From the NCBI GenBank assembly GCA_964016885.1, contig OZ024747.1, positions 70,928,001 to 70,992,000 on the forward strand: 64,000 bases of DNA, written 5' to 3'. This document shows, in pieces, positions 2,799 through 37,339 of the stretch. Under the pieces are notes generated by a model. The model was not told where the DNA came from. It was given only the letters and a program-made list of their open reading frames with translations, and made no database searches. The stretch is from Eledone cirrhosa (Eukaryota). Every line of letters begins with the position of its first letter. The first letter of the stretch is position 1. Position numbers and translations under genes: made by a program.

Positions 2799-2800
<2 letters not shown>
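2702..2800 (+). mobile_element. Family D two-ended mini-insertion
   Basis: Inverted TAGGAAC followed by CTACTGGTTCCTATTACCCAC...TTTCCTTCGTT, matching 49248-49339; between (TA)n tracts. Confidence 0.75.
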
Positions 2801-2865
<65 letters not shown>

Positions 2866-2905
2866 ATATATTATATATATATATATATATTATATATATA
2901 TATAA

Positions 2906-4540
2906 GAGTATAGACATAGAATATTCGAAAATATTCTGTATGTTTATAATAAACATTTTGAAGACCTAATCGCTATAGAATAGAATACGTCACGTATTAC
3001 AATTAGATTCTCGATAAAAGCAAGGGAAGTAATCTACGCGTTTCATTCTTGTTAGAATTCATCAGGACTACATATCCAGTGCTTTTATCGAGAATGACAC
3101 AGCTAGAGACTTATAGAATACTTAGCTGTGTACTGGAACTGGTTTGAAAGAGCGGTTGCCGGTCCGGCAGAAATTAGAAATTGGAATAAATGCTCTGAAA
3201 TAGCGATATATATGTGAGTATAGACATAGAATATTCGAAAATATTCTGTATGTTTATAATAAACATTTTGAAGACCTAATCGCTATAGAATAGAATACGT
3301 CACGTATTACAATTAGATTCTCGATAAAAGCAAGGGAAGTAATCTACGCGTTTCATTCTTGTTAGAATTCATCAGGACTACATATCCAGTGCTTTTATCG
3401 AGAATGACACAGCTAGAGACTTATAGAATACTTAGCTGTGTACTGGAACTGGTTTGAAAGAGCGGTTGCCGGTCCGGCAGAAATTAGAAATTGGAATAAA
3501 TGCTCTGAAATAGCGATATATATGTGAGTATAGACATAGAATATTCGAAAATATTCTGTATGTTTATAATAAACATTTTGAAGACCTAATCGCTATAGAA
3601 TAGAATACGTCACGTATTACAATTAGATTCTCGATAAAAGCAAGGGAAATAATCTACGCGTTTCATTCTTGTTAGAATTCATCAGGACTACATATCCAGT
3701 GCTTTTATCGAGAATGACACAGCTAGAGACTTATAGAATACTTAGCTGTGTACTGGAACTGGTTTGAAAGAGCGGTTGCCGGTCCGGCAGAAATTAGAAA
3801 TTAGAATAAATGCTCTGAAATAGCGATATATATGTGAGTATAGACATAGAATATTCGAAAATATTCTGTATGTTTATAATAAACATTTTGAAGACCTAAT
3901 CGCTATAGAATAGAATACGTCACGTATTACAATTAGATTCTCGATAAAAGCAAGGGAAGTAATCTACGCGTTTCATTCTTGTTAGAATTCATCAGGACTA
4001 CATATCCAGTGCTTTTATCGAGAATGACACAGCTAGAGACTTATAGAATACTTAGCTGTGTACTGGAACTGGTTTGAAAGAGCGGTTGCCGGTCCGGCAG
4101 AAATTAGAAATTGGAATAAATGCTCTGAAATAGCGATATATATGTGAGTATAGACATAGAATATTCGAAAATATTCTGTATGTTTATAATAAACATTTTG
4201 AAGACCTAATCGCTATAGAATAGAATACGTCACGTATTACAATTAGATTCTCGATAAAAGCAAGGGAAGTAATCTACGCGTTTCATTCTTGTTAGAATTC
4301 ATCAGGACTACATATCCAGTGCTTTTATCGAGAATGACACAGCTAGAGACTTATAGAATACTTAGCTGTGTACTGGAACTGGTTTGAAAGAGCGGTTGCC
4401 GGTCCGGCAGAAATTAGAAATTGGAATAAATGCTCTGAAATAGCGATATATATGTGAGTATAGACATAGAATATTCGAAAATATTCTGTATGTTTATAAT
4501 AAACATTTTGAAGACCTAATCGCTATAGAATAGAATACGT
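2906..4540 (-). repeat. 310-bp hammerhead tandem array (retrozyme), minus-strand arm, ~5.3 units
   Basis: TAGACATAGA recurs at 2911, 3221, 3531, 3841, 4151, 4461; ATCAGG core complement at 3061, 3371, 3681, 3991, 4301. Confidence 0.95.
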
Positions 4541-7500
4541 CCTGATGAATTCTAACAAGAATGAAACGCGTAGATTACTTCCCTTGCTTTTATCGAGAAT
4601 CTAATTGTAATACGTGACGTATTCTATTCTATAGCGATTAGGTCTTCAAAATGTTTATTATAAACATACAGAATATTTTCGAATATTCTATGTCTATACT
4701 CACATATATATCGCTATTTCAGAGCATTTATTCCAATTTCTAATTTCTGCCGGACCGGCAACCGCTCTTTCAAACCAGTTCCAGTACACAGCTAAGTATT
4801 CTATAAGTCTCTAGCTGTGTCATTCTCGATAAAAGCACTGGATATGTAGTCCTGATGAATTCTAACAAGAATGAAACGCGTAGATTACTTCCCTTGCTTT
4901 TATCGAGAATCTAATTGTAATACGTGACGTATTCTATTCTATAGCGATTAGGTCTTCAAAATGTTTATTATAAACATACAGAATATTTTCGAATATTCTA
5001 TGTCTATACTCACATATATATCGCTATTTCAGAGCATTTATTCCAATTTCTAATTTCTGCCGGACCGGCAACCGCTCTTTCAAACCAGTTCCAGTACACA
5101 GCTAAGTATTCTATAAGTCTCTAGCTGTGTCATTCTCGATAAAAGCACTGGATATGTAGTCCTGATGAATTCTAACAAGAATGAAACGCGTAGATTACTT
5201 CCCTTGCTTTTATCGAGAATCTAATTGTAATACGTGACGTATTCTATTCTATAGCGATTAGGTCTTCAAAATGTTTATTATAAACATACAGAATATTTTC
5301 GAATATTCTATGTCTATACTCACATATATATCGCTATTTCAGAGCATTTATTCCAATTTCTAATTTCTGCCGGACCGGCAACCGCTCTTTCAAACCAGTT
5401 CCAGTACACAGCTAAGTATTCTATAAGTCTCTAGCTGTGTCATTCTCGATAAAAGCACTGGATATGTAGTCCTGATGAATTCTAACAAGAATGAAACGCG
5501 TAGATTACTTCCCTTGCTTTTATCGAGAATCTAATTGTAATACGTGACGTATTCTATTCTATAGCGATTAGGTCTTCAAAATGTTTATTATAAACATACA
5601 GAATATTTTCGAATATTCTATGTCTATACTCACATATATATCGCTATTTCAGAGCATTTATTCCAATTTCTAATTTCTGCCGGACCGGCAACCGCTCTTT
5701 CAAACCAGTTCCAGTACACAGCTAAGTATTCTATAAGTCTCTAGCTGTGTCATTCTCGATAAAAGCACTGGATATGTAGTCCTGATGAATTCTAACAAGA
5801 ATGAAACGCGTAGATTACTTCCCTTGCTTTTATCGAGAATCTAATTGTAATACGTGACGTATTCTATTCTATAGCGATTAGGTCTTCAAAATGTTTATTA
5901 TAAACATACAGAATATTTTCGAATATTCTATGTCTATACTCACATATATATCGCTATTTCAGAGCATTTATTCCAATTTCTAATTTCTGCCGGACCGGCA
6001 ACCGCTCTTTCAAACCAGTTCCAGTACACAGCTAAGTATTCTATAAGTCTCTAGCTGTGTCATTCTCGATAAAAGCACTGGATATGTAGTCCTGATGAAT
6101 TCTAACAAGAATGAAACGCGTAGATTACTTCCCTTGCTTTTATCGAGAATCTAATTGTAATACGTGACGTATTCTATTCTATAGCGATTAGGTCTTCAAA
6201 ATGTTTATTATAAACATACAGAATATTTTCGAATATTCTATGTCTATACTCACATATATATCGCTATTTCAGAGCATTTATTCCAATTTCTAATTTCTGC
6301 CGGACCGGCAACCGCTCTTTCAAACCAGTTCCAGTACACAGCTAAGTATTCTATAAGTCTCTAGCTGTGTCATTCTCGATAAAAGCACTGGATATGTAGT
6401 CCTGATGAATTCTAACAAGAATGAAACGCGTAGATTACTTCCCTTGCTTTTATCGAGAATCTAATTGTAATACGTGACGTATTCTATTCTATAGCGATTA
6501 GGTCTTCAAAATGTTTATTATAAACATACAGAATATTTTCGAATATTCTATGTCTATACTCACATATATATCGCTATTTCAGAGCATTTATTCCAATTTC
6601 TAATTTCTGCCGGACCGGCAACCGCTCTTTCAAACCAGTTCCAGTACACAGCTAAGTATTCTATAAGTCTCTAGCTGTGTCATTCTCGATAAAAGCACTG
6701 GATATGTAGTCCTGATGAATTCTAACAAGAATGAAACGCGTAGATTACTTCCCTTGCTTTTATCGAGAATCTAATTGTAATACGTGACGTATTCTATTCT
6801 ATAGCGATTAGGTCTTCAAAATGTTTATTATAAACATACAGAATATTTTCGAATATTCTATGTCTATACTCACATATATATCGCTATTTCAGAGCATTTA
6901 TTCCAATTTCTAATTTCTGCCGGACCGGCAACCGCTCTTTCAAACCAGTTCCAGTACACAGCTAAGTATTCTATAAGTCTCTAGCTGTGTCATTCTCGAT
7001 AAAAGCACTGGATATGTAGTCCTGATGAATTCTAACAAGAATGAAACGCGTAGATTACTTCCCTTGCTTTTATCGAGAATCTAATTGTAATACGTGACGT
7101 ATTCTATTCTATAGCGATTAGGTCTTCAAAATGTTTATTATAAACATACAGAATATTTTCGAATATTCTATGTCTATACTCACATATATATCGCTATTTC
7201 AGAGCATTTATTCCAATTTCTAATTTCTGCCGGACCGGCAACCGCTCTTTCAAACCAGTTCCAGTACACAGCTAAGTATTCTATAAGTCTCTAGCTGTGT
7301 CATTCTCGATAAAAGCACTGGATATGTAGTCCTGATGAATTCTAACAAGAATGAAACGCGTAGATTACTTCCCTTGCTTTTATCGAGAATCTAATTGTAA
7401 TACGTGACGTATTCTATTCTATAGCGATTAGGTCTTCAAAATGTTTATTATAAACATACAGAATATTTTCGAATATTCTATGTCTATACTCACATATATA

Positions 7501-8766
7501 TCGCTATTTCAGAGCATTTATTCCAATTTCTAATTTCTGCCGGACCGGCAACCGCTCTTTCAAACCAGTTCCAGTACACAGCTAAGTATTCTATAAGTCT
7601 CTAGCTGTGTCATTCTCGATAAAAGCACTGGATATGTAGTCCTGATGAATTCTAACAAGAATGAAACGCGTAGATTACTTCCCTTGCTTTTATCGAGAAT
7701 CTAATTGTAATACGTGACGTATTCTATTCTATAGCGATTAGGTCTTCAAAATGTTTATTATAAACATACAGAATATTTTCGAATATTCTATGTCTATACT
7801 CACATATATATCGCTATTTCAGAGCATTTATTCCAATTTCTAATTTCTGCCGGACCGGCAACCGCTCTTTCAAACCAGTTCCAGTACACAGCTAAGTATT
7901 CTATAAGTCTCTAGCTGTGTCATTCTCGATAAAAGCACTGGATATGTAGTCCTGATGAATTCTAACAAGAATGAAACGCGTAGATTACTTCCCTTGCTTT
8001 TATCGAGAATCTAATTGTAATACGTGACGTATTCTATTCTATAGCGATTAGGTCTTCAAAATGTTTATTATAAACATACAGAATATTTTCGAATATTCTA
8101 TGTCTATACTCACATATATATCGCTATTTCAGAGCATTTATTCCAATTTCTAATTTCTGCCGGACCGGCAACCGCTCTTTCAAACCAGTTCCAGTACACA
8201 GCTAAGTATTCTATAAGTCTCTAGCTGTGTCATTCTCGATAAAAGCACTGGATATGTAGTCCTGATGAATTCTAACAAGAATGAAACGCGTAGATTACTT
8301 CCCTTGCTTTTATCGAGAATCTAATTGTAATACGTGACGTATTCTATTCTATAGCGATTAGGTCTTCAAAATGTTTATTATAAACATACAGAATATTTTC
8401 GAATATTCTATGTCTATACTCACATATATATCGCTATTTCAGAGCATTTATTCCAATTTCTAATTTCTGCCGGACCGGCAACCGCTCTTTCAAACCAGTT
8501 CCAGTACACAGCTAAGTATTCTATAAGTCTCTAGCTGTGTCATTCTCGATAAAAGCACTGGATATGTAGTCCTGATGAATTCTAACAAGAATGAAACGCG
8601 TAGATTACTTCCCTTGCTTTTATCGAGAATCTAATTGTAATACGTGACGTATTCTATTCTATAGCGATTAGGTCTTCAAAATGTTTATTATAAACATACA
8701 GAATATTTTCGAATATTCTATGTCTATACTCACATATATATCGCTATTTCAGAGCATTTATTCCAA
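4541..8766 (+). repeat. 310-bp hammerhead tandem array (retrozyme), plus-strand arm, ~13.6 units
   Basis: CCTGATGAATTC recurs every 310 bp from 4541 to 8571 (14 cores); ends ATTTATTCCAA+(TA)n. Confidence 0.95.
4846..4888 (+). ncRNA. Type I hammerhead ribozyme (representative unit, repeats every 310 bp)
   Basis: GTAGTC-CTGATGA-ATTC-TAACAA-GAAT-GAAA-CGCG-TA-GATTAC: stem I GTAGTC/GATTAC, stem II ATTC/GAAT, palindromic stem III ACGCGT, GUA site at 4882. Confidence 0.92.
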
Positions 8767-9426
8767 TATATATATAAATATATATATATGTATGTATGTA
8801 TATGTGTGTGTGTATGTATATATGCATTTGTTTGAGTGTTATCATATGTACTAAATATTAGCCTGCAACAGGAATAACAACAAAAAATTCATGCTGTTGT
8901 GGCTTCTGCTTTGCGTGCGATGTTATTATTTACCAACAACATTGTCCTAGTTAGTACTCATTTTCATGACCACCAAATAATATCATTATCATCGTATGCG
9001 TGTTTTGACGACGACTCTGATGACGACAGTGGTGAAATTGGGATGCTGTATTATGAAGAGTTTTTGAGAATGGTAATGTAGTGCTTGTAGTAATGGTGGG
9101 TTTGTTACTTGGGTAGATGTTGTTCTATAATTGCATTAAAACTTTTAAATATCTTCTAAAATGTATTTCTTTGTAGATGTTTCATGTTTAAATCTGTGTG
9201 TATGAATAGATGCAATGCAATGCACTCGATGCAATGCTTATCGATATCTGCGATGGGTATACATATATGTTTTATACGTGAGTATTGAATATTTCTATCA
9301 TGTGTAAGTGTGTCTTTCTTAAGACTACGTTACTGCTGTGGTGGGAATGTGGATTTTTATATGGCTACTGGTACACGTTTCATACATATGTTTATGTGCA
9401 TAAATAAGTGTTTAGTGTGGTATTCG

Positions 9427-17804: not shown

Positions 17805-17876
<72 letters not shown>

Positions 17877-18096
17877 CGTTTCTGAATTTGTTTAGCAAGA
17901 TTCTTTATCTGAAATCGTGTGTTGAAACCGATATTGTTATACTTTGGGAGGGTCATGTTGCCAATAAGAAACACACGCACCAGTTGCTTTCACTTCAATT
18001 TATTATATATTTATAAATTTATAAATTTACAAATCTACAAACTTATAAATTTCTGGTTGGTTGGTTGGTTCCACAACCAGATAGTTGTTTATATAT

Positions 18097-18141
18097 AGTC
18101 ATAGTCCTTTCGTCACACACTCTGTGACCTCTTCAGTGACT
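18097..18141 (-). ncRNA. Minimal type I hammerhead ribozyme, family B 3' UTR (minus arm)
   Basis: AGTCA-CTGAAGA-G-GTCAC..GTGAC-GAAA-GGAC-TA-TGACT. Confidence 0.75.
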
Positions 18142-18345
18142 GGGGATTCCTTTCTTTGTTTCTGTGCCTTTCCTTTCTTCTGTCCTACGCCATTTTGTTT
18201 TTGTGTGTGCGTTGTGTGCTCAGTTTGCGCATGCGCCACATCCGGGTGTCTGTGTTTGTTTGTGTTCATTTATCTATTTGTTTATTTATTTACATGTTGT
18301 TGGTTGGTTGTTTGTTCTATGTGTGTGTGTGTTTTCATTTTGTCC

Positions 18346-20168
18346 TTAATTGTAAGTTGTGATGTTGCTGTTCCACTCATATTTTCTATTTAATTTTGGT
18401 TGTAATTCTTTTATGCTTACTGCCTCTGTAATTTGCCTAAACATTGCATCTTTTCTGTGTGTGGATTCTATTTTTATTTCTATGTTCTCTAATTTACCCT
18501 TGTGTTCTATCTTAGCATGTTGGTAGAGTACAGATGATTCTTTATTATCTTGAAGGTCTCGCCAGTGTTCATTTATCCGTTCCCCTATACTACGAGCTGT
18601 CTCACCTATGTACACTATATTTTTGTTTCTACATTGTCCTTCAGTACATCTTATGCTATACACTACATTTCTAGTTTTACAGTTAAAATGGGGGCTTATT
18701 TTACAGGTTATACATTTCTTATCTATACATGAGGGTCTTTGGAACGGGTATGTCTTGCTAATAATGTTTTTACGGAGGTACCTGGTCTTTCTACTATCTT
18801 AATATTGAGTTTATGTTTATTTAGGGCCCTTCTAAATTTGTAGGCTAGTTCACCTCTAGGGGTTGTATTGATGAACATTACACTCTGGTATTTATTGCTA
18901 TCATACCATGAGTTTATTCTATTGGCCTTGTTCCTAGTTCTTTCTATTCTATTCCAAAATTTGCTCCTATACAAGGGGCTTGTCCCATTTATGTCATTAT
19001 TTACCATTTTTTGCCATTTGGTTCTGGCTCCTCTATACACTCTGATTCTATCTCTCTGATTGTAGCCAGAGAACTGCATACGGTGGATGAAGTGTTGTAT
19101 GTGTCTCTCTAGTTCTTCGGGGTTGCACATGCGGGACACATTTCTCATCACCCGTACCAAATCCGCAATCAGTATGTTGATTTTGGTATGGTCCGAAATG
19201 GCCGAGTTTCGGTGGATCAGATGTTTGGAAGTCATGGGTTTGGCATAATGGGAATGGAGGATTTGTTTTTGGTTGTTAATGGTATCTAACCAGAGCTCTG
19301 TGTCTAGTACAGGTAATCGATGGTTGGGGTGTCTACTTGGGTAGTCTATAGTAACTCTAATGCTCTGGTGGATGGAGTTTGCTATTTGCTGGATGCTTTC
19401 CATTGTGTTTTTCTCTAGTTCCTGACTGTTCTCTAGTGGGGGTGTCTTAACTACAATGTTTATATCATCTACGTAGCGGGAGTACATTATCAGGGTTAAG
19501 CTGTCTTCTAATTGTTCTTTAAGTTTAAGTTTAAGTCTACTGTCCCACCATACCATGAATAAGTTAGCTATGTCGCCTGCAATGCTAACACCAATGGCTG
19601 CTCCTTCCTCTTGGGCATATGTTTTTCCATTAAATTTGAACATATGTTCAAATGGTAGGTGGTCTGCCTCTTGCTGGTCTTGTAGGGCACAGGTTGCTAA
19701 GGTCATAAGTGTCTAGGTAACTATTACTATGGGTAAGCTTAAGTAGAAGTCCCAGCTCACTGGTATCAATCCCACGGAACTCAACCTTGCTCTCGCTGAT
19801 CATTTCTACGCATTTCTCCACAGCAAAATCCACGTCAATAGATGGATACAGGGACACAACATCCATACTGCCTATTATGCAGTTTGTTAGGTCCCAAGAT
19901 CGGTTACCCACGCCGATTCTGCCGAGGAGGTCCTCCGTGCTGTCACATACATCTGGGGACATCTCAATGATGGGGCGTATGATCAGGGAGAGGAAGTAGG
20001 ACAGTCTGTAGTTACTAGCAATGTTAGCTCCACAGACTGGCCGTGTTGGTGGTCCCGCGACAGGGTCACAGCCCGTTTTATGGTCTTTTCGAAGCCCATA
20101 CAACGCCGGCACGTCATTGTTCCAGGCCTGGAAGTTGTTGGCAGTCCTTTTGTTGGGCTGCATTATAT
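18346..20168 (-). pseudogene. PLE RT + GIY-YIG, disrupted copy
   Basis: Same protein as the plus arm, plus extra upstream RT motifs PALYGLRKDHK and RPVCGA; ~135-bp deletion near 19650 and frameshifts near 18720-18770. Confidence 0.9.
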
Positions 20169-21940
20169 CATACGCCCCATCATTGAGATGTCCCCAGATG
20201 TATGTGACAGCACGGAGGACCTCCTCGGCAGAATCGGCGTGGGTAACCGATCTGGGGGACCTAACAAACTGCATAATAGGCAGTATGGATGTTGTGTCCC
20301 TGTATCCATCTATTGACGTGGATTTTGCTGTGGAGAAATGCGTAGAAATGATCAGCGAGAGCAAGGTTGAGTTCCGTGGGATTGATACCAGTGAGCTGGG
20401 ACTTCTACTTAAGCTTACTCATAGTAATATTTACCTAGACACTTATGACCTTAGCAACCTGTGCCCTACAAGACCAGCAAGAGGCAGACCACCTACCATT
20501 ACCTCAATGGCCAAGAAAACCCACACAGATAGATGGAACGCGTGGACCAGAGCCATACGGACACCCGAAAACCACGATGAACTGAAGAAAATGATTGCAC
20601 ATGCGGTAGAGGCCAGCATAAAATTAACCCTTAAGGAACATATGTTCAAATTTAATGGAAAAACATATGCCCAAGAGGAAGGAGCAGCCATTGGTGTTAG
20701 CATTGCAGGCGACATAGCTAACTTATTCATGGTATGGTGGGACAGTAGACTTAAACTTAAACTTAAAGAACAATTAGAAGACAGCTTAACCCTGATAATG
20801 TACTCCCGCTACGTAGATGATATAAACATTGTAGTTAAGACACCCCCACTAGAGAACAGTCAGGAACTAGAGAAAAACACAATGGAAAGCATCCAGCAAA
20901 TAGCAAACTCCATCCACCAGAGCATTAGAGTTACTATAGACTACCCAAGTAGACACCCCAACCATCGATTACCTGTACTAGACACAGAGCTCTGGTTAGA
21001 TACCATTAACAACCAAAAACAAATCCTCCATTCCCATTATGCCAAACCCATGACTTCCAAACATCTGATCCACCGAAACTCGGCCATTTCGGACCATACC
21101 AAAATCAACATACTGATTGCGGATTTGGTACGGGTGATGAGAAATGTGTCCCGCATGTGCAACCCCGAAGAACTAGAGAGACACATACAACACTTCATCC
21201 ACCGTATGCAGTTCTCTGGCTACAATCAGAGAGATAGAATCAGAGTGTATAGAGGAGCCAGAACCAAATGGCAAAAAATGGTAAATAATGACATAAATGG
21301 GACAAGCCCCTTGTATAGGAGCAAATTTTGGAATAGAATAGAAAGAACTAGGAACAAGGCCAATAGAATAAACTCATGGTATGATAGCAATAAATACCAG
21401 AGTGTAATGTTCATCAATACAACCCCTAGAGGCGAACTAGCCTACAAATTTAGAAGGGCTCTAAATAAACATAAACTCAATATTAAGATAGTAGAAAGAC
21501 CAGGTACCTCCGTAAAAACACTTATTAGCAAGACATACCCGTTCCAAAGACCCTCATGTATAGATAAGAAATGTATAACCTGTAAAATAAGCCCCCATAT
21601 TAACTGTAAAACTAGAAATGTAGTGTATAGCATAAGATGTACTGAAGGACAATGTAGAAACAAAAATATAGTGTACATAGGTGAGACAGCTCGTAGTATA
21701 GGGGAACAGATAAATGAACACTGGCGAGACCTTCAAGATAATAAAGAATCATCTGTACTCTACCAACATGCTAAGATAGAACACAAGGGTAAATTAGAGA
21801 ACATAGAAATAAAAATAGAATCCACACACAGAAAAGATGCAATGTTTAGGCAAATTACAGAGGCAGTAAGCATAAAAGAATTACAACCAAAATTAAATAG
21901 AAAATATGAGTGGAACAGCAACATCACAACTTACAATTAA
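20021..21940 (+). CDS. PLE reverse transcriptase / GIY-YIG endonuclease polyprotein (5'-truncated; genuine frame from ~20258)
   Basis: GSMDVVSLYPSI, QEEGAAIG, MVWWD, RYVDD, LPVLD, CIDKKCITC...C linker, NVVYSIRC...YIGETAR..EH; the first ~78 codons are junction-derived. Confidence 0.92.
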   Translation: MLAPQTGRVGGPATGSQPVLWSFRSPYNAGTSLFQAWKLLAVLLLGCIISYAPSLRCPQMYVTARRTSSAESAWVTDLGDLTNCIIGSMDVVSLYPSIDVDFAVEKCVEMISESKVEFRGIDTSELGLLLKLTHSNIYLDTYDLSNLCPTRPARGRPPTITSMAKKTHTDRWNAWTRAIRTPENHDELKKMIAHAVEASIKLTLKEHMFKFNGKTYAQEEGAAIGVSIAGDIANLFMVWWDSRLKLKLKEQLEDSLTLIMYSRYVDDINIVVKTPPLENSQELEKNTMESIQQIANSIHQSIRVTIDYPSRHPNHRLPVLDTELWLDTINNQKQILHSHYAKPMTSKHLIHRNSAISDHTKINILIADLVRVMRNVSRMCNPEELERHIQHFIHRMQFSGYNQRDRIRVYRGARTKWQKMVNNDINGTSPLYRSKFWNRIERTRNKANRINSWYDSNKYQSVMFINTTPRGELAYKFRRALNKHKLNIKIVERPGTSVKTLISKTYPFQRPSCIDKKCITCKISPHINCKTRNVVYSIRCTEGQCRNKNIVYIGETARSIGEQINEHWRDLQDNKESSVLYQHAKIEHKGKLENIEIKIESTHRKDAMFRQITEAVSIKELQPKLNRKYEWNSNITTYN

Positions 21941-22144
21941 GGACAAAATAAAAACACACACACACATAGAACAAACAACCAACCAACAACATGTAAATAA
22001 ATAAACAAATAGATAAATGAACACAAACACACACAGACACCCGGATGTGGCGCATGCAAAAACTGAGCACACAACACACACACAGAAACAAAATGGCGTA
22101 GGACAGAAGAAAGGAAAGGCACAGAAACAAAGAAAGGAATCCCC

Positions 22145-22189
22145 AGTCACTGAAGAGGTCATAGAGTGTGGGACGAAAGATCTATGACT
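22145..22189 (+). ncRNA. Minimal type I hammerhead ribozyme, family B 3' UTR (plus arm)
   Basis: AGTCA-CTGAAGA-GGTC..GAC-GAAA-GATC-TA-TGACT with palindromic stem III AGATCT. Confidence 0.75.
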
Positions 22190-22347
22190 ATATATAAACA
22201 ACTATCTGGTTGTGGAACCAACCAACCAACCAGAAATTTATAAGTTTGTAGATTTGTAAATTTATAAATTTATAAATATATAATAAATTGAAGTGAAAGC
22301 AACTGGTGCGTGTGTTTCTTATTGGCAACATGACCCTCCCAAAGTAT

Positions 22348-22422
<75 letters not shown>

Positions 22423-22423
22423 A

Positions 22424-22497
<74 letters not shown>

Positions 22498-22502
<5 letters not shown>

Positions 22503-22835
22503 TGTAATAAACAACATAAGGCAATTATTCCATTTACCAGTGGTTTCTTAAAAACAAAATATTTTGCTTTCAATCATCAGAATGAAAAAATCCTGGTATG
22601 TTTATTGAACTTGGAATTTAAAAACAACGTTTTTAATGTTGTTTTTAAAATCCAAATTCAATAAACAGACCAGGATTTTTTCATTCTGATGATTGAAAGC
22701 AATTTTTTTTGCTTTTAAGAAACCACTGGTAAATGGAATAATTGCCTTATGTTGTTTATTACATAACTATTAAGCTCTGTTACCTACATAGAGCACTCTT
22801 TTTTCCTGGACTTTTCCGTCGGAATTACTTCATTC
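22498..22835. mobile_element. Family E two-ended fold-back insertion with ultra-minimal hammerhead-like core
   Basis: ~130-bp inverted arms around ~22634; CTGATGA-TT-GAAA in both arms; right arm has an extra ~65-nt tail; microsatellite flanks. Confidence 0.7.
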
Positions 22836-36976: not shown

Positions 36977-37045
<69 letters not shown>

Positions 37046-37047
37046 TT

Positions 37048-37199
37048 TTGCTTTTATCGAGAATCTCAAATTGTAATACGTGACGTATTCTATTCTATAG
37101 CGATTAGGTCTTCAAAATGTTTATTATAAACATACAGAATATTCTCGAATATTCTATGTTTTTCTTCACATATATATCGCTATTTCAGAGCATTAAATC

Positions 37200-37202
<3 letters not shown>
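37048..37202 (+). mobile_element. Solo 5'-truncated fragment of the 310-bp retrozyme
   Basis: Matches 8614-8766 with a few substitutions and ends at the same TCCAA+(TA)n. Confidence 0.9.
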
Positions 37203-37275
<73 letters not shown>

Positions 37276-37339
37276 TATATACATATATATAACTAATATC
37301 TACATCTATCTATCTATTTCTCCTCCTTTCCCTCTATTT

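Follow-up and report, generated by a model that had tools for sequence, protein, structure and literature searches.

Paired fixed ends and uniform inverted arms in insertions of a retrozyme-like 310-nt repeat of Eledone cirrhosa

Introduction

Animal retrozymes were defined by Cervera and de la Pena (2020; PMC7229834), and a circular RNA template and mobilisation by Penelope-like elements (PLEs) have been proposed for them (PMC7229834; 10.64898/2026.07.22.740005). In Xenopus, kinship between a retrozyme and pLTRs was described by Li, Clavereau and Pollet (2026, bioRxiv 10.64898/2026.07.22.740005), whose preprint favours later local satellite amplification. EN+ PLEs carry a 5'-truncated inverted copy at the 5' end and a 30-40-nt tail at one end only, prefer microsatellites, and in Adineta duplicate ~8-10 bp of the target; among Chlamys elements, non-autonomous tandem ones such as MRC1 have also been described (PMC8557442, PMC3846280). 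The origin of the inverted arms and one-sided tails of PLEs has been called undefined (PMC8557442), and views based on endonuclease resolution or self-priming are given in PMC3846280 and PMC8557442. For the Poseidon element of Anolis (PAc), Frangieh et al. (2024, PMC11167929) found in vitro that both strands were cut and extended, that the tail was delimited by two internal sites, both lying downstream of the hammerhead cut, at which reverse transcription (RT) started, and that targets were AT-rich; a dimer was predicted. Internal initiation for a PLE is already published (PMC11167929). The two strands were not seen to differ in their start site in vitro, and the parts of that paper covered here do not discuss head-to-head products, circles or retrozymes.

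PLE mobilisation of retrozyme circles has so far been inferred from co-occurrence and phylogeny. In L1 twin priming, both target strands prime synthesis on a single RNA, and microhomology between the resulting cDNAs unites them as an inversion. There the internal position of the second primer varies, and each arm is copied from a different stretch of a linear RNA. Here we analysed a 64,000-nt stretch of the Eledone cirrhosa genome (the window; contig OZ024747.1, positions 70,928,001 to 70,992,000), together with related copies genome-wide.

Results

Organization of the array in the window

The window contains an inverted, two-armed array of low-GC, tandem 310-nt units. Positions within the unit are given as phases, phase 1 being the first base after the predicted hammerhead cut. 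The features of the array were as follows.

4539..8767, plus strand: arm A, 13.6 identical 310-nt units, 3' end at phase 164/165
2906..4541, minus strand: arm B of the same insertion, inverted, 5.3 units, 3' end at phase 129
4539..4541: point where the arms meet head to head, overlapping by 3 nt
8566..8608, plus strand: predicted type I hammerhead in the last full unit (from sequence, folds and motif scan)
8732..8741, plus strand: site B in the last unit, phases 130-139, ACAUAUAUAU, the end of the partner arm in most insertions
8733..8767, plus strand: tail of ~35 nt, in arm A only, ending at site A
2800..2905: (TA)n flank where arm B ends
8768..8790: (TA)n flank where arm A ends

Arm B carries two single-unit substitutions, and it ends ~35 nt earlier in the unit than arm A does. 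A six-frame scan showed no long ORF over the arrays, and at all loci examined the arms held units only, with no RT/GIY-YIG ORF such as an autonomous PLE would carry.

The motif scan and the fold agreed on a hammerhead core (CUGAUGA...GAAA) with stems I-III in the 310-nt unit. In the last full unit, stem I pairs 8566-8571 with 8603-8608 (GUAGUC/GAUUAC), CUGAUGA lies at 8572-8578, the triplet is GUA, and the predicted cut falls after 8602. An Rfam scan of the array unit returned no family at the gathering threshold, so the hammerhead is called from its motif and fold. Thirteen variants chosen in the hammerhead domain kept pairing (6), lay in unpaired positions (5) or broke a pair (2), and none of the 13 fell on an invariant core base. 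From the analogy with axolotl motifs (PMC7229834), the short, palindromic nature of stem III suggests that cleavage would depend on dimers. Three runs recorded under other organisms (X4, X5 and X6) each held a single 340-nt contig of one haplotype matching window positions 8293-8760. Such a length (310 plus 30) is expected if a closed loop is assembled, but equally if the source is a tandem DNA array.

Two end points, one in each arm

The initial annotation had proposed that the unit is mobile, that its copies share an end, and that RT starts at one fixed internal site rather than at the end made by the ribozyme. Mobility was borne out by 13,367 ribozyme-core matches genome-wide. These read through the cut site, against 0 (TA)n junctions at the cut in the genome. 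Junctions of end A to (TA)n numbered 647, and those of end B 914, a few internal matches included; both counts are for the forward strand, as reverse counts double-count. The shared end point is thus fixed, and the genome-wide distribution of 3' ends placed none at the cut. What did not stand was the single site. A second end, B, lies ~35 nt earlier both in the window array and genome-wide, which ruled out one fixed end; the apparent RT start is fixed and internal, but at two sites, one per arm. When ends were strictly measured, A ends lay at phases 163-169, with phase 165 in 37 of 51 (a figure biased by picking on A), and B ends at phase 130 in 22 and phase 139 in 18 of 52.

Pairing of the two ends was read directly from insertions picked in different ways. 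The full-unit pick, which was blind to ends, took the first 20 of 21 arrays among the 150 listed of 389 matches, plus the window. It gave 20 two-armed insertions, 19 being A+B, one B+B-like (L034) and none A+A, with A ends at 163-172 and B ends at 121-139; two further insertions were single-armed. The A pick took the first 41 distinct A junctions, and all 38 that were two-armed within the fetched stretch had a B-class partner (38/38); among the others, L105 is single-armed and L086 is interrupted by an N gap. The B ends of L088 and of one edge-cut A-picked insertion were taken from the list of B junctions. The B pick took 13 B junctions of the same region without an A match. An A arm was present in 7 of these 13 (six ending at 166-172, and a 10-nt A arm in L188), 6 were single-armed, and none was B+B. 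Five loci picked by ribozyme core comprised two A+B, two single and one rearranged. Overall, 58 two-armed insertions stood against 4-5 single-armed or unresolved ones (61 loci), and 57 of the 58 paired one A end with one B end, leaving a 30-40-nt tail on one side. TA runs flank nearly all ends, and the only 8-nt TA run of the unit is at site B. Two near-duplicate insertions, L101 and L192, lie 1.5 kb apart beside an N gap and are possibly an assembly duplicate.

Inner junctions, arm lengths and targets

The 5' ends of 114 arms were scattered round the unit (Rayleigh p 0.15). Two of the 114 lay within 3 nt of the cut, where 2.6 were expected, and run-off at a ribozyme-made 5' end was therefore not seen. 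A mild cluster of 5' ends was present 13-22 nt past the cut, with p 0.013 at 10-nt width and 0.13-0.19 at wider ones; it counts against the explanation that we favour below. Inserted bases were found in 12 of the 51 strictly measured inner junctions. Where there were none, 26 of 39 junctions overlapped by at least 2 nt, compared with 18% expected (p 4e-11). The inter-arm junction of L092 (3599-3870) holds 272 nt of unrelated GC-rich sequence.

Neither arm was consistently the longer. Among 57 insertions, B was the longer arm in 28 and A in the other 29, and the difference exceeded a unit in 20/57 in favour of B and in 23/57 in favour of A. The extremes included a 10-nt A arm beside a 104-nt B arm (L188) and an arm of 27 units (L088). 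No correlation was found between the lengths or the stop phases of the two arms (rho 0.22, p 0.10). Coupled stopping of the arms was thereby ruled out, and the two RTs would not be simply coupled, which again counts against the favoured explanation.

Target duplications enclose whole two-armed insertions at two loci, with 14 bp in L031 and 12-15 bp in L203. Candidates of 12-14 bp in 6 of 50 rows are weak, most of them lying in imperfect microsatellite, and duplications are unreadable where the target is pure TA.

Haplotypes of the two arms

Haplotypes were compared in insertions with at least 2 units in both arms, excluding phases near the two ends. Of 37 such insertions, 36 had a haplotype common to both arms, against a mean of 7.3 and a maximum of 17 after shuffling; in the A-picked set this held for 25 of 26. 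There were 13 haplotypes, 10 of them seen once, and each of these ten was uniform along both arms. Variants confined to a single unit numbered 68, against 6 of intermediate frequency. Among 36 non-fixed substitutions that could have been mirrored in the other arm, 4 entries, in 2 loci, were. The sharing of haplotypes and the variant spectrum fit one monomer copied repeatedly from both sides. The earlier suggestion of a circular or multimeric template likewise agrees with these arms: such a template requires copying through the cut site many times, and 89 of 114 arms hold at least 2 units. A pure monomer template leaves two loci unexplained, L103, where a variant is in 9 of 13 units, and L112, where a variant is mirrored at the same rank in both arms; both count against the favoured explanation.

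The truncated copy, its subfamily and a 320-nt relative

A second, shorter copy in the window had drawn attention to the family. Its features were as follows.

37048..37202, plus strand: 5'-truncated, single-arm copy of a 312-nt subfamily, starting 11 nt beyond the cut and ending at A
37203..37291: (TA)n run at the 3' end of the fragment, the putative target
36980..37047: (CA)n, then short (TA)n, on the 5' side of the fragment

The fragment starts at phase 12, adjoining the mild cluster of 5' ends, and is without the hammerhead core; no second arm was recognisable in 36980..37047. As the initial annotation had noted, it stops at TCCAA followed by a TA run, the point where the array also stops (8766), which lies 164 nt beyond the predicted cut (8766-8602). 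The base directly after TCCAA is T in the array and A in the fragment. Aligned with the last 153 nt of the array unit, the fragment was 94.2% identical over 155 columns (E 6e-65), with 7 substitutions and one 2-nt insertion. These differences had been taken as divergence, a description that does not hold. The substitutions are marks of the 312-nt subfamily, and the fragment is identical (155/155) to copies in 4 of 10 other examined insertions of that subfamily, which ruled out an old decayed copy. Its diagnostic 35-mer had 25 exact matches across 11 insertions, many at 312 nt spacing. By itself the fragment is an ordinary truncated arm. Under the favoured explanation, we propose that it is an arm A halted within one round, with arm B nil or lost.

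Since the fragment is identical to subfamily copies, its differences from the array give no date, and the earlier argument for mobility at different times loses that basis. The claim itself is likely to be correct on other evidence. Between units of one insertion, the difference is 1.05% for the 312-nt subfamily (3 insertions) and 0.07% for the 310-nt family (12 insertions), and a relative of ~70% identity has the same ends; mobility at several times is therefore likely. From these unit differences, the 312-nt subfamily looks older on average than the 310-nt family. Its two-armed insertions numbered 10: in 8 the A+B pair was typical (the B end came early in one of these), and in 2 the A end was shortened.

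The relative has 320-nt units, 820 exact matches to a 35-mer, and both ends, A and B. In its loci (L156-L185), UUGAUAA replaces CUGAUGA and the arms are mostly short; L176-L181 is one long array of heterogeneous units. Among 30 loci of the relative, none in the output listed had an ORF attached in the same element. In L167/L168 (~1340-1830) a tandem of 163-nt units without the ribozyme half ends at A, and a variant alternates between neighbouring 163-nt units, as a dimer template would give. The degenerate core of the relative and the 163-nt tandems indicate that cleavage is not needed for all tandems, which counts against the favoured explanation.

Penelope-like elements in the genome

Our search for a partner PLE combined a GIY-YIG search, a hammerhead scan, flank alignments and a tail survey. 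The GIY-YIG search gave 10,596 candidates, and long ORFs with RT and GIY-YIG occur in the genome. Among 40 GIY-YIG loci of these candidates, no partner with clear sequence kinship to the retrozyme was found, which counts against the favoured explanation. The tail survey revealed many PLE-type families with tails of ~38-135 nt. The PLE-type elements of the genome have the same layout, an inverted arm and a tail, and the tail is family-specific (65 nt in L143, L147 and L151). L138 (1370-7730) has an intact 1096-aa RT/GIY-YIG ORF, an inverted arm and a 38-nt tail. L138 was the best lead for a partner, and a weak one: about 20 nt around end A show a likeness between it and the retrozyme, with none upstream; the p value of 0.003-0.009 is that of one comparison chosen after seeing ~15 families. 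No hammerhead was called in the L138 pLTR, and no PDB relative of its ORF was found. An intact 830-aa PLE-type ORF with a long-stem-II hammerhead was present in L115 (6439-8928, minus strand) and L141. L115 was rejected as the partner, its hammerhead being different from that of the retrozyme; a retrozyme insertion appears to be placed in a TA run of the 3' region of the L115/L141 element.

The window also has a Penelope-like copy at 17805-22475, with RT frames at 20012-21937 (plus) and 18726-19712 (minus), a hammerhead-like motif near 18102 (minus), head-to-head arms 97% alike and a ~60-nt tail on one arm. Unrelated hammerhead-like motifs lie in short TA-flanked elements at 22535 (minus), 22731 (plus), 30199 (minus), 30846 (minus) and 59510 (minus), and the pair at 22535 and 22731 is itself head to head.

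Proposed mechanism and alternatives

From sequence comparisons, we consider it probable (about 0.62) that the family is a non-LTR retrozyme inserted by a trans-acting PLE RT-endonuclease that primes both cut strands at A and B, likely on a circular monomer. We are confident of two-strand priming at two fixed sites; given such priming, a circle is the probable template. In favour of a PLE stand the richness of the genome in GIY-YIG/RT elements, the inverted arm and tail that such elements share with the family, and the cutting and extension of both strands by PAc in vitro from two starts that bound its tail (PMC11167929). Transcripts of an array would self-cleave, and the monomer would be circularised. 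Cutting of AT-rich DNA by the enzyme would be staggered and would produce 3' overhangs of ~12-15 nt. One overhang would start at site A with 1-3 nt of pairing and the other at site B, often aided by pairing with AUAUAUAU. Each RT would then circle the monomer a variable number of times. Finally, a few bases at the 3' ends of the two antisense cDNAs would pair, each cDNA templating the other, and this mutual templating would generate both second strands and the inverted structure.

The same priming at A and B could have used a linear, uncleaved multimeric array transcript instead of a circle, a reading that we judge rather unlikely. PAc insertion in vitro was independent of HHR cleavage, with unprocessed RNA as the main substrate (PMC11167929), and 1 of 9 Xenopus retrozyme dimers was cleaved (10.64898/2026.07.22.740005). 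The insertion of the degenerate-core relative and the variant at the same rank in both arms of L112 point the same way. However, the ten once-seen haplotypes, uniform over all units of both arms, would demand a one-unit bottleneck; the paucity of mirrored substitutions (4 entries in 2 loci, of 36) and the 27-unit arm of L088 also speak for a circle over a linear multimer. Given L103, L112, the degenerate core and the ribozyme-free 163-nt tandems, a linear multimer or template jumping retains some probability.

Two further alternatives concern how the arms arose, and we hold each to be improbable. If short PLE-type two-arm copies came first and grew later by unequal crossover or slippage, the two inverted arms would have to expand separately yet stay identical. 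The 68 single-unit against 6 shared variants do not favour such growth, nor do the arrays of 5-20 units that match the window unit exactly and lie on several chromosomes. Some exchange is indicated by the six intermediate-frequency variants, some in non-adjacent units (L088, L092), and the shorter arms in older subfamilies, at the loci seen, would suit later growth. Alternatively, there may be one RT start only, the inverted arm being a fold-back product of self-priming and the short end being set by endonuclease resolution at an AU/TA run. Site B, with the only 8-nt TA run, does resemble the target, and a fold-back would also yield shared haplotypes and short junction homology. Yet a fold-back arm cannot outgrow its template, whereas either arm exceeds the other by over a unit in many insertions (20/57 and 23/57) and the 10-nt A arm of L188 faces a 104-nt B arm. 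Nor would fold-back alone account for a second arm that is attached to the opposite strand of the target and accompanied by a target duplication.

Discussion

Beyond this family, we tentatively suggest, at somewhat less than even odds, that PLEs have an obligate split of two internal start sites, one per cut strand, and that on a retrozyme circle both become rolling-circle RT. On that suggestion, one event would write two opposed concatemers, and the cDNAs would prime each other. If this is true, split start sites would account at once for three features of PLEs (the inverted arm, the one-sided tail and second-strand synthesis), and animal retrozymes would form their arrays in the act of insertion. 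With around a thousand insertions, very young and carrying markers, this 310-nt passenger allows direct tests of which strand starts where and of whether a circle is re-read.

The family resembles animal non-LTR retrozymes in its non-coding, low-GC, ~300-nt tandem units with a predicted type I hammerhead, its unit length lying within the 150-450 bp of that class. The parts of the retrozyme papers covered here contain no mapped insertion ends, inverted two-arm insertions, tail or (TA)n targeting. We found no literature on two-armed retrozyme insertions or on pairing of one site per arm; supplements and subscription journals may show such copies. Kinship with pLTRs was shown for Xenopus retrozymes, whereas no pLTR kin was found among 40 GIY-YIG loci here. 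Our data favour arrays made at insertion, in contrast to the later amplification favoured by the preprint (10.64898/2026.07.22.740005).

The likeness to EN+ PLEs lies in the inverted 5'-truncated arm, the one-sided 30-40-nt tail, the AT-rich or (TA)n target and the target duplication. Unlike them, the 310-nt family is without an ORF and both arms are multi-unit, and nearly every two-armed copy here has the tail on one arm and not on the other. The length data oppose the self-priming account of EN+ PLE inversions. Compared with PAc, two start sites are again used, but genomic copies indicate that here they are divided between the two strands; with no strand difference in start site, PAc alone does not predict the strict A+B pairing, which counts against the favoured explanation. 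Unlike in L1 twin priming, the second site has a constant position ~35 nt away from the first, and one and the same unit is copied over and over in both arms. The feature is itself of a known kind, and its paired ends and uniform arms are a new, testable readout of PLE/retrozyme insertion.
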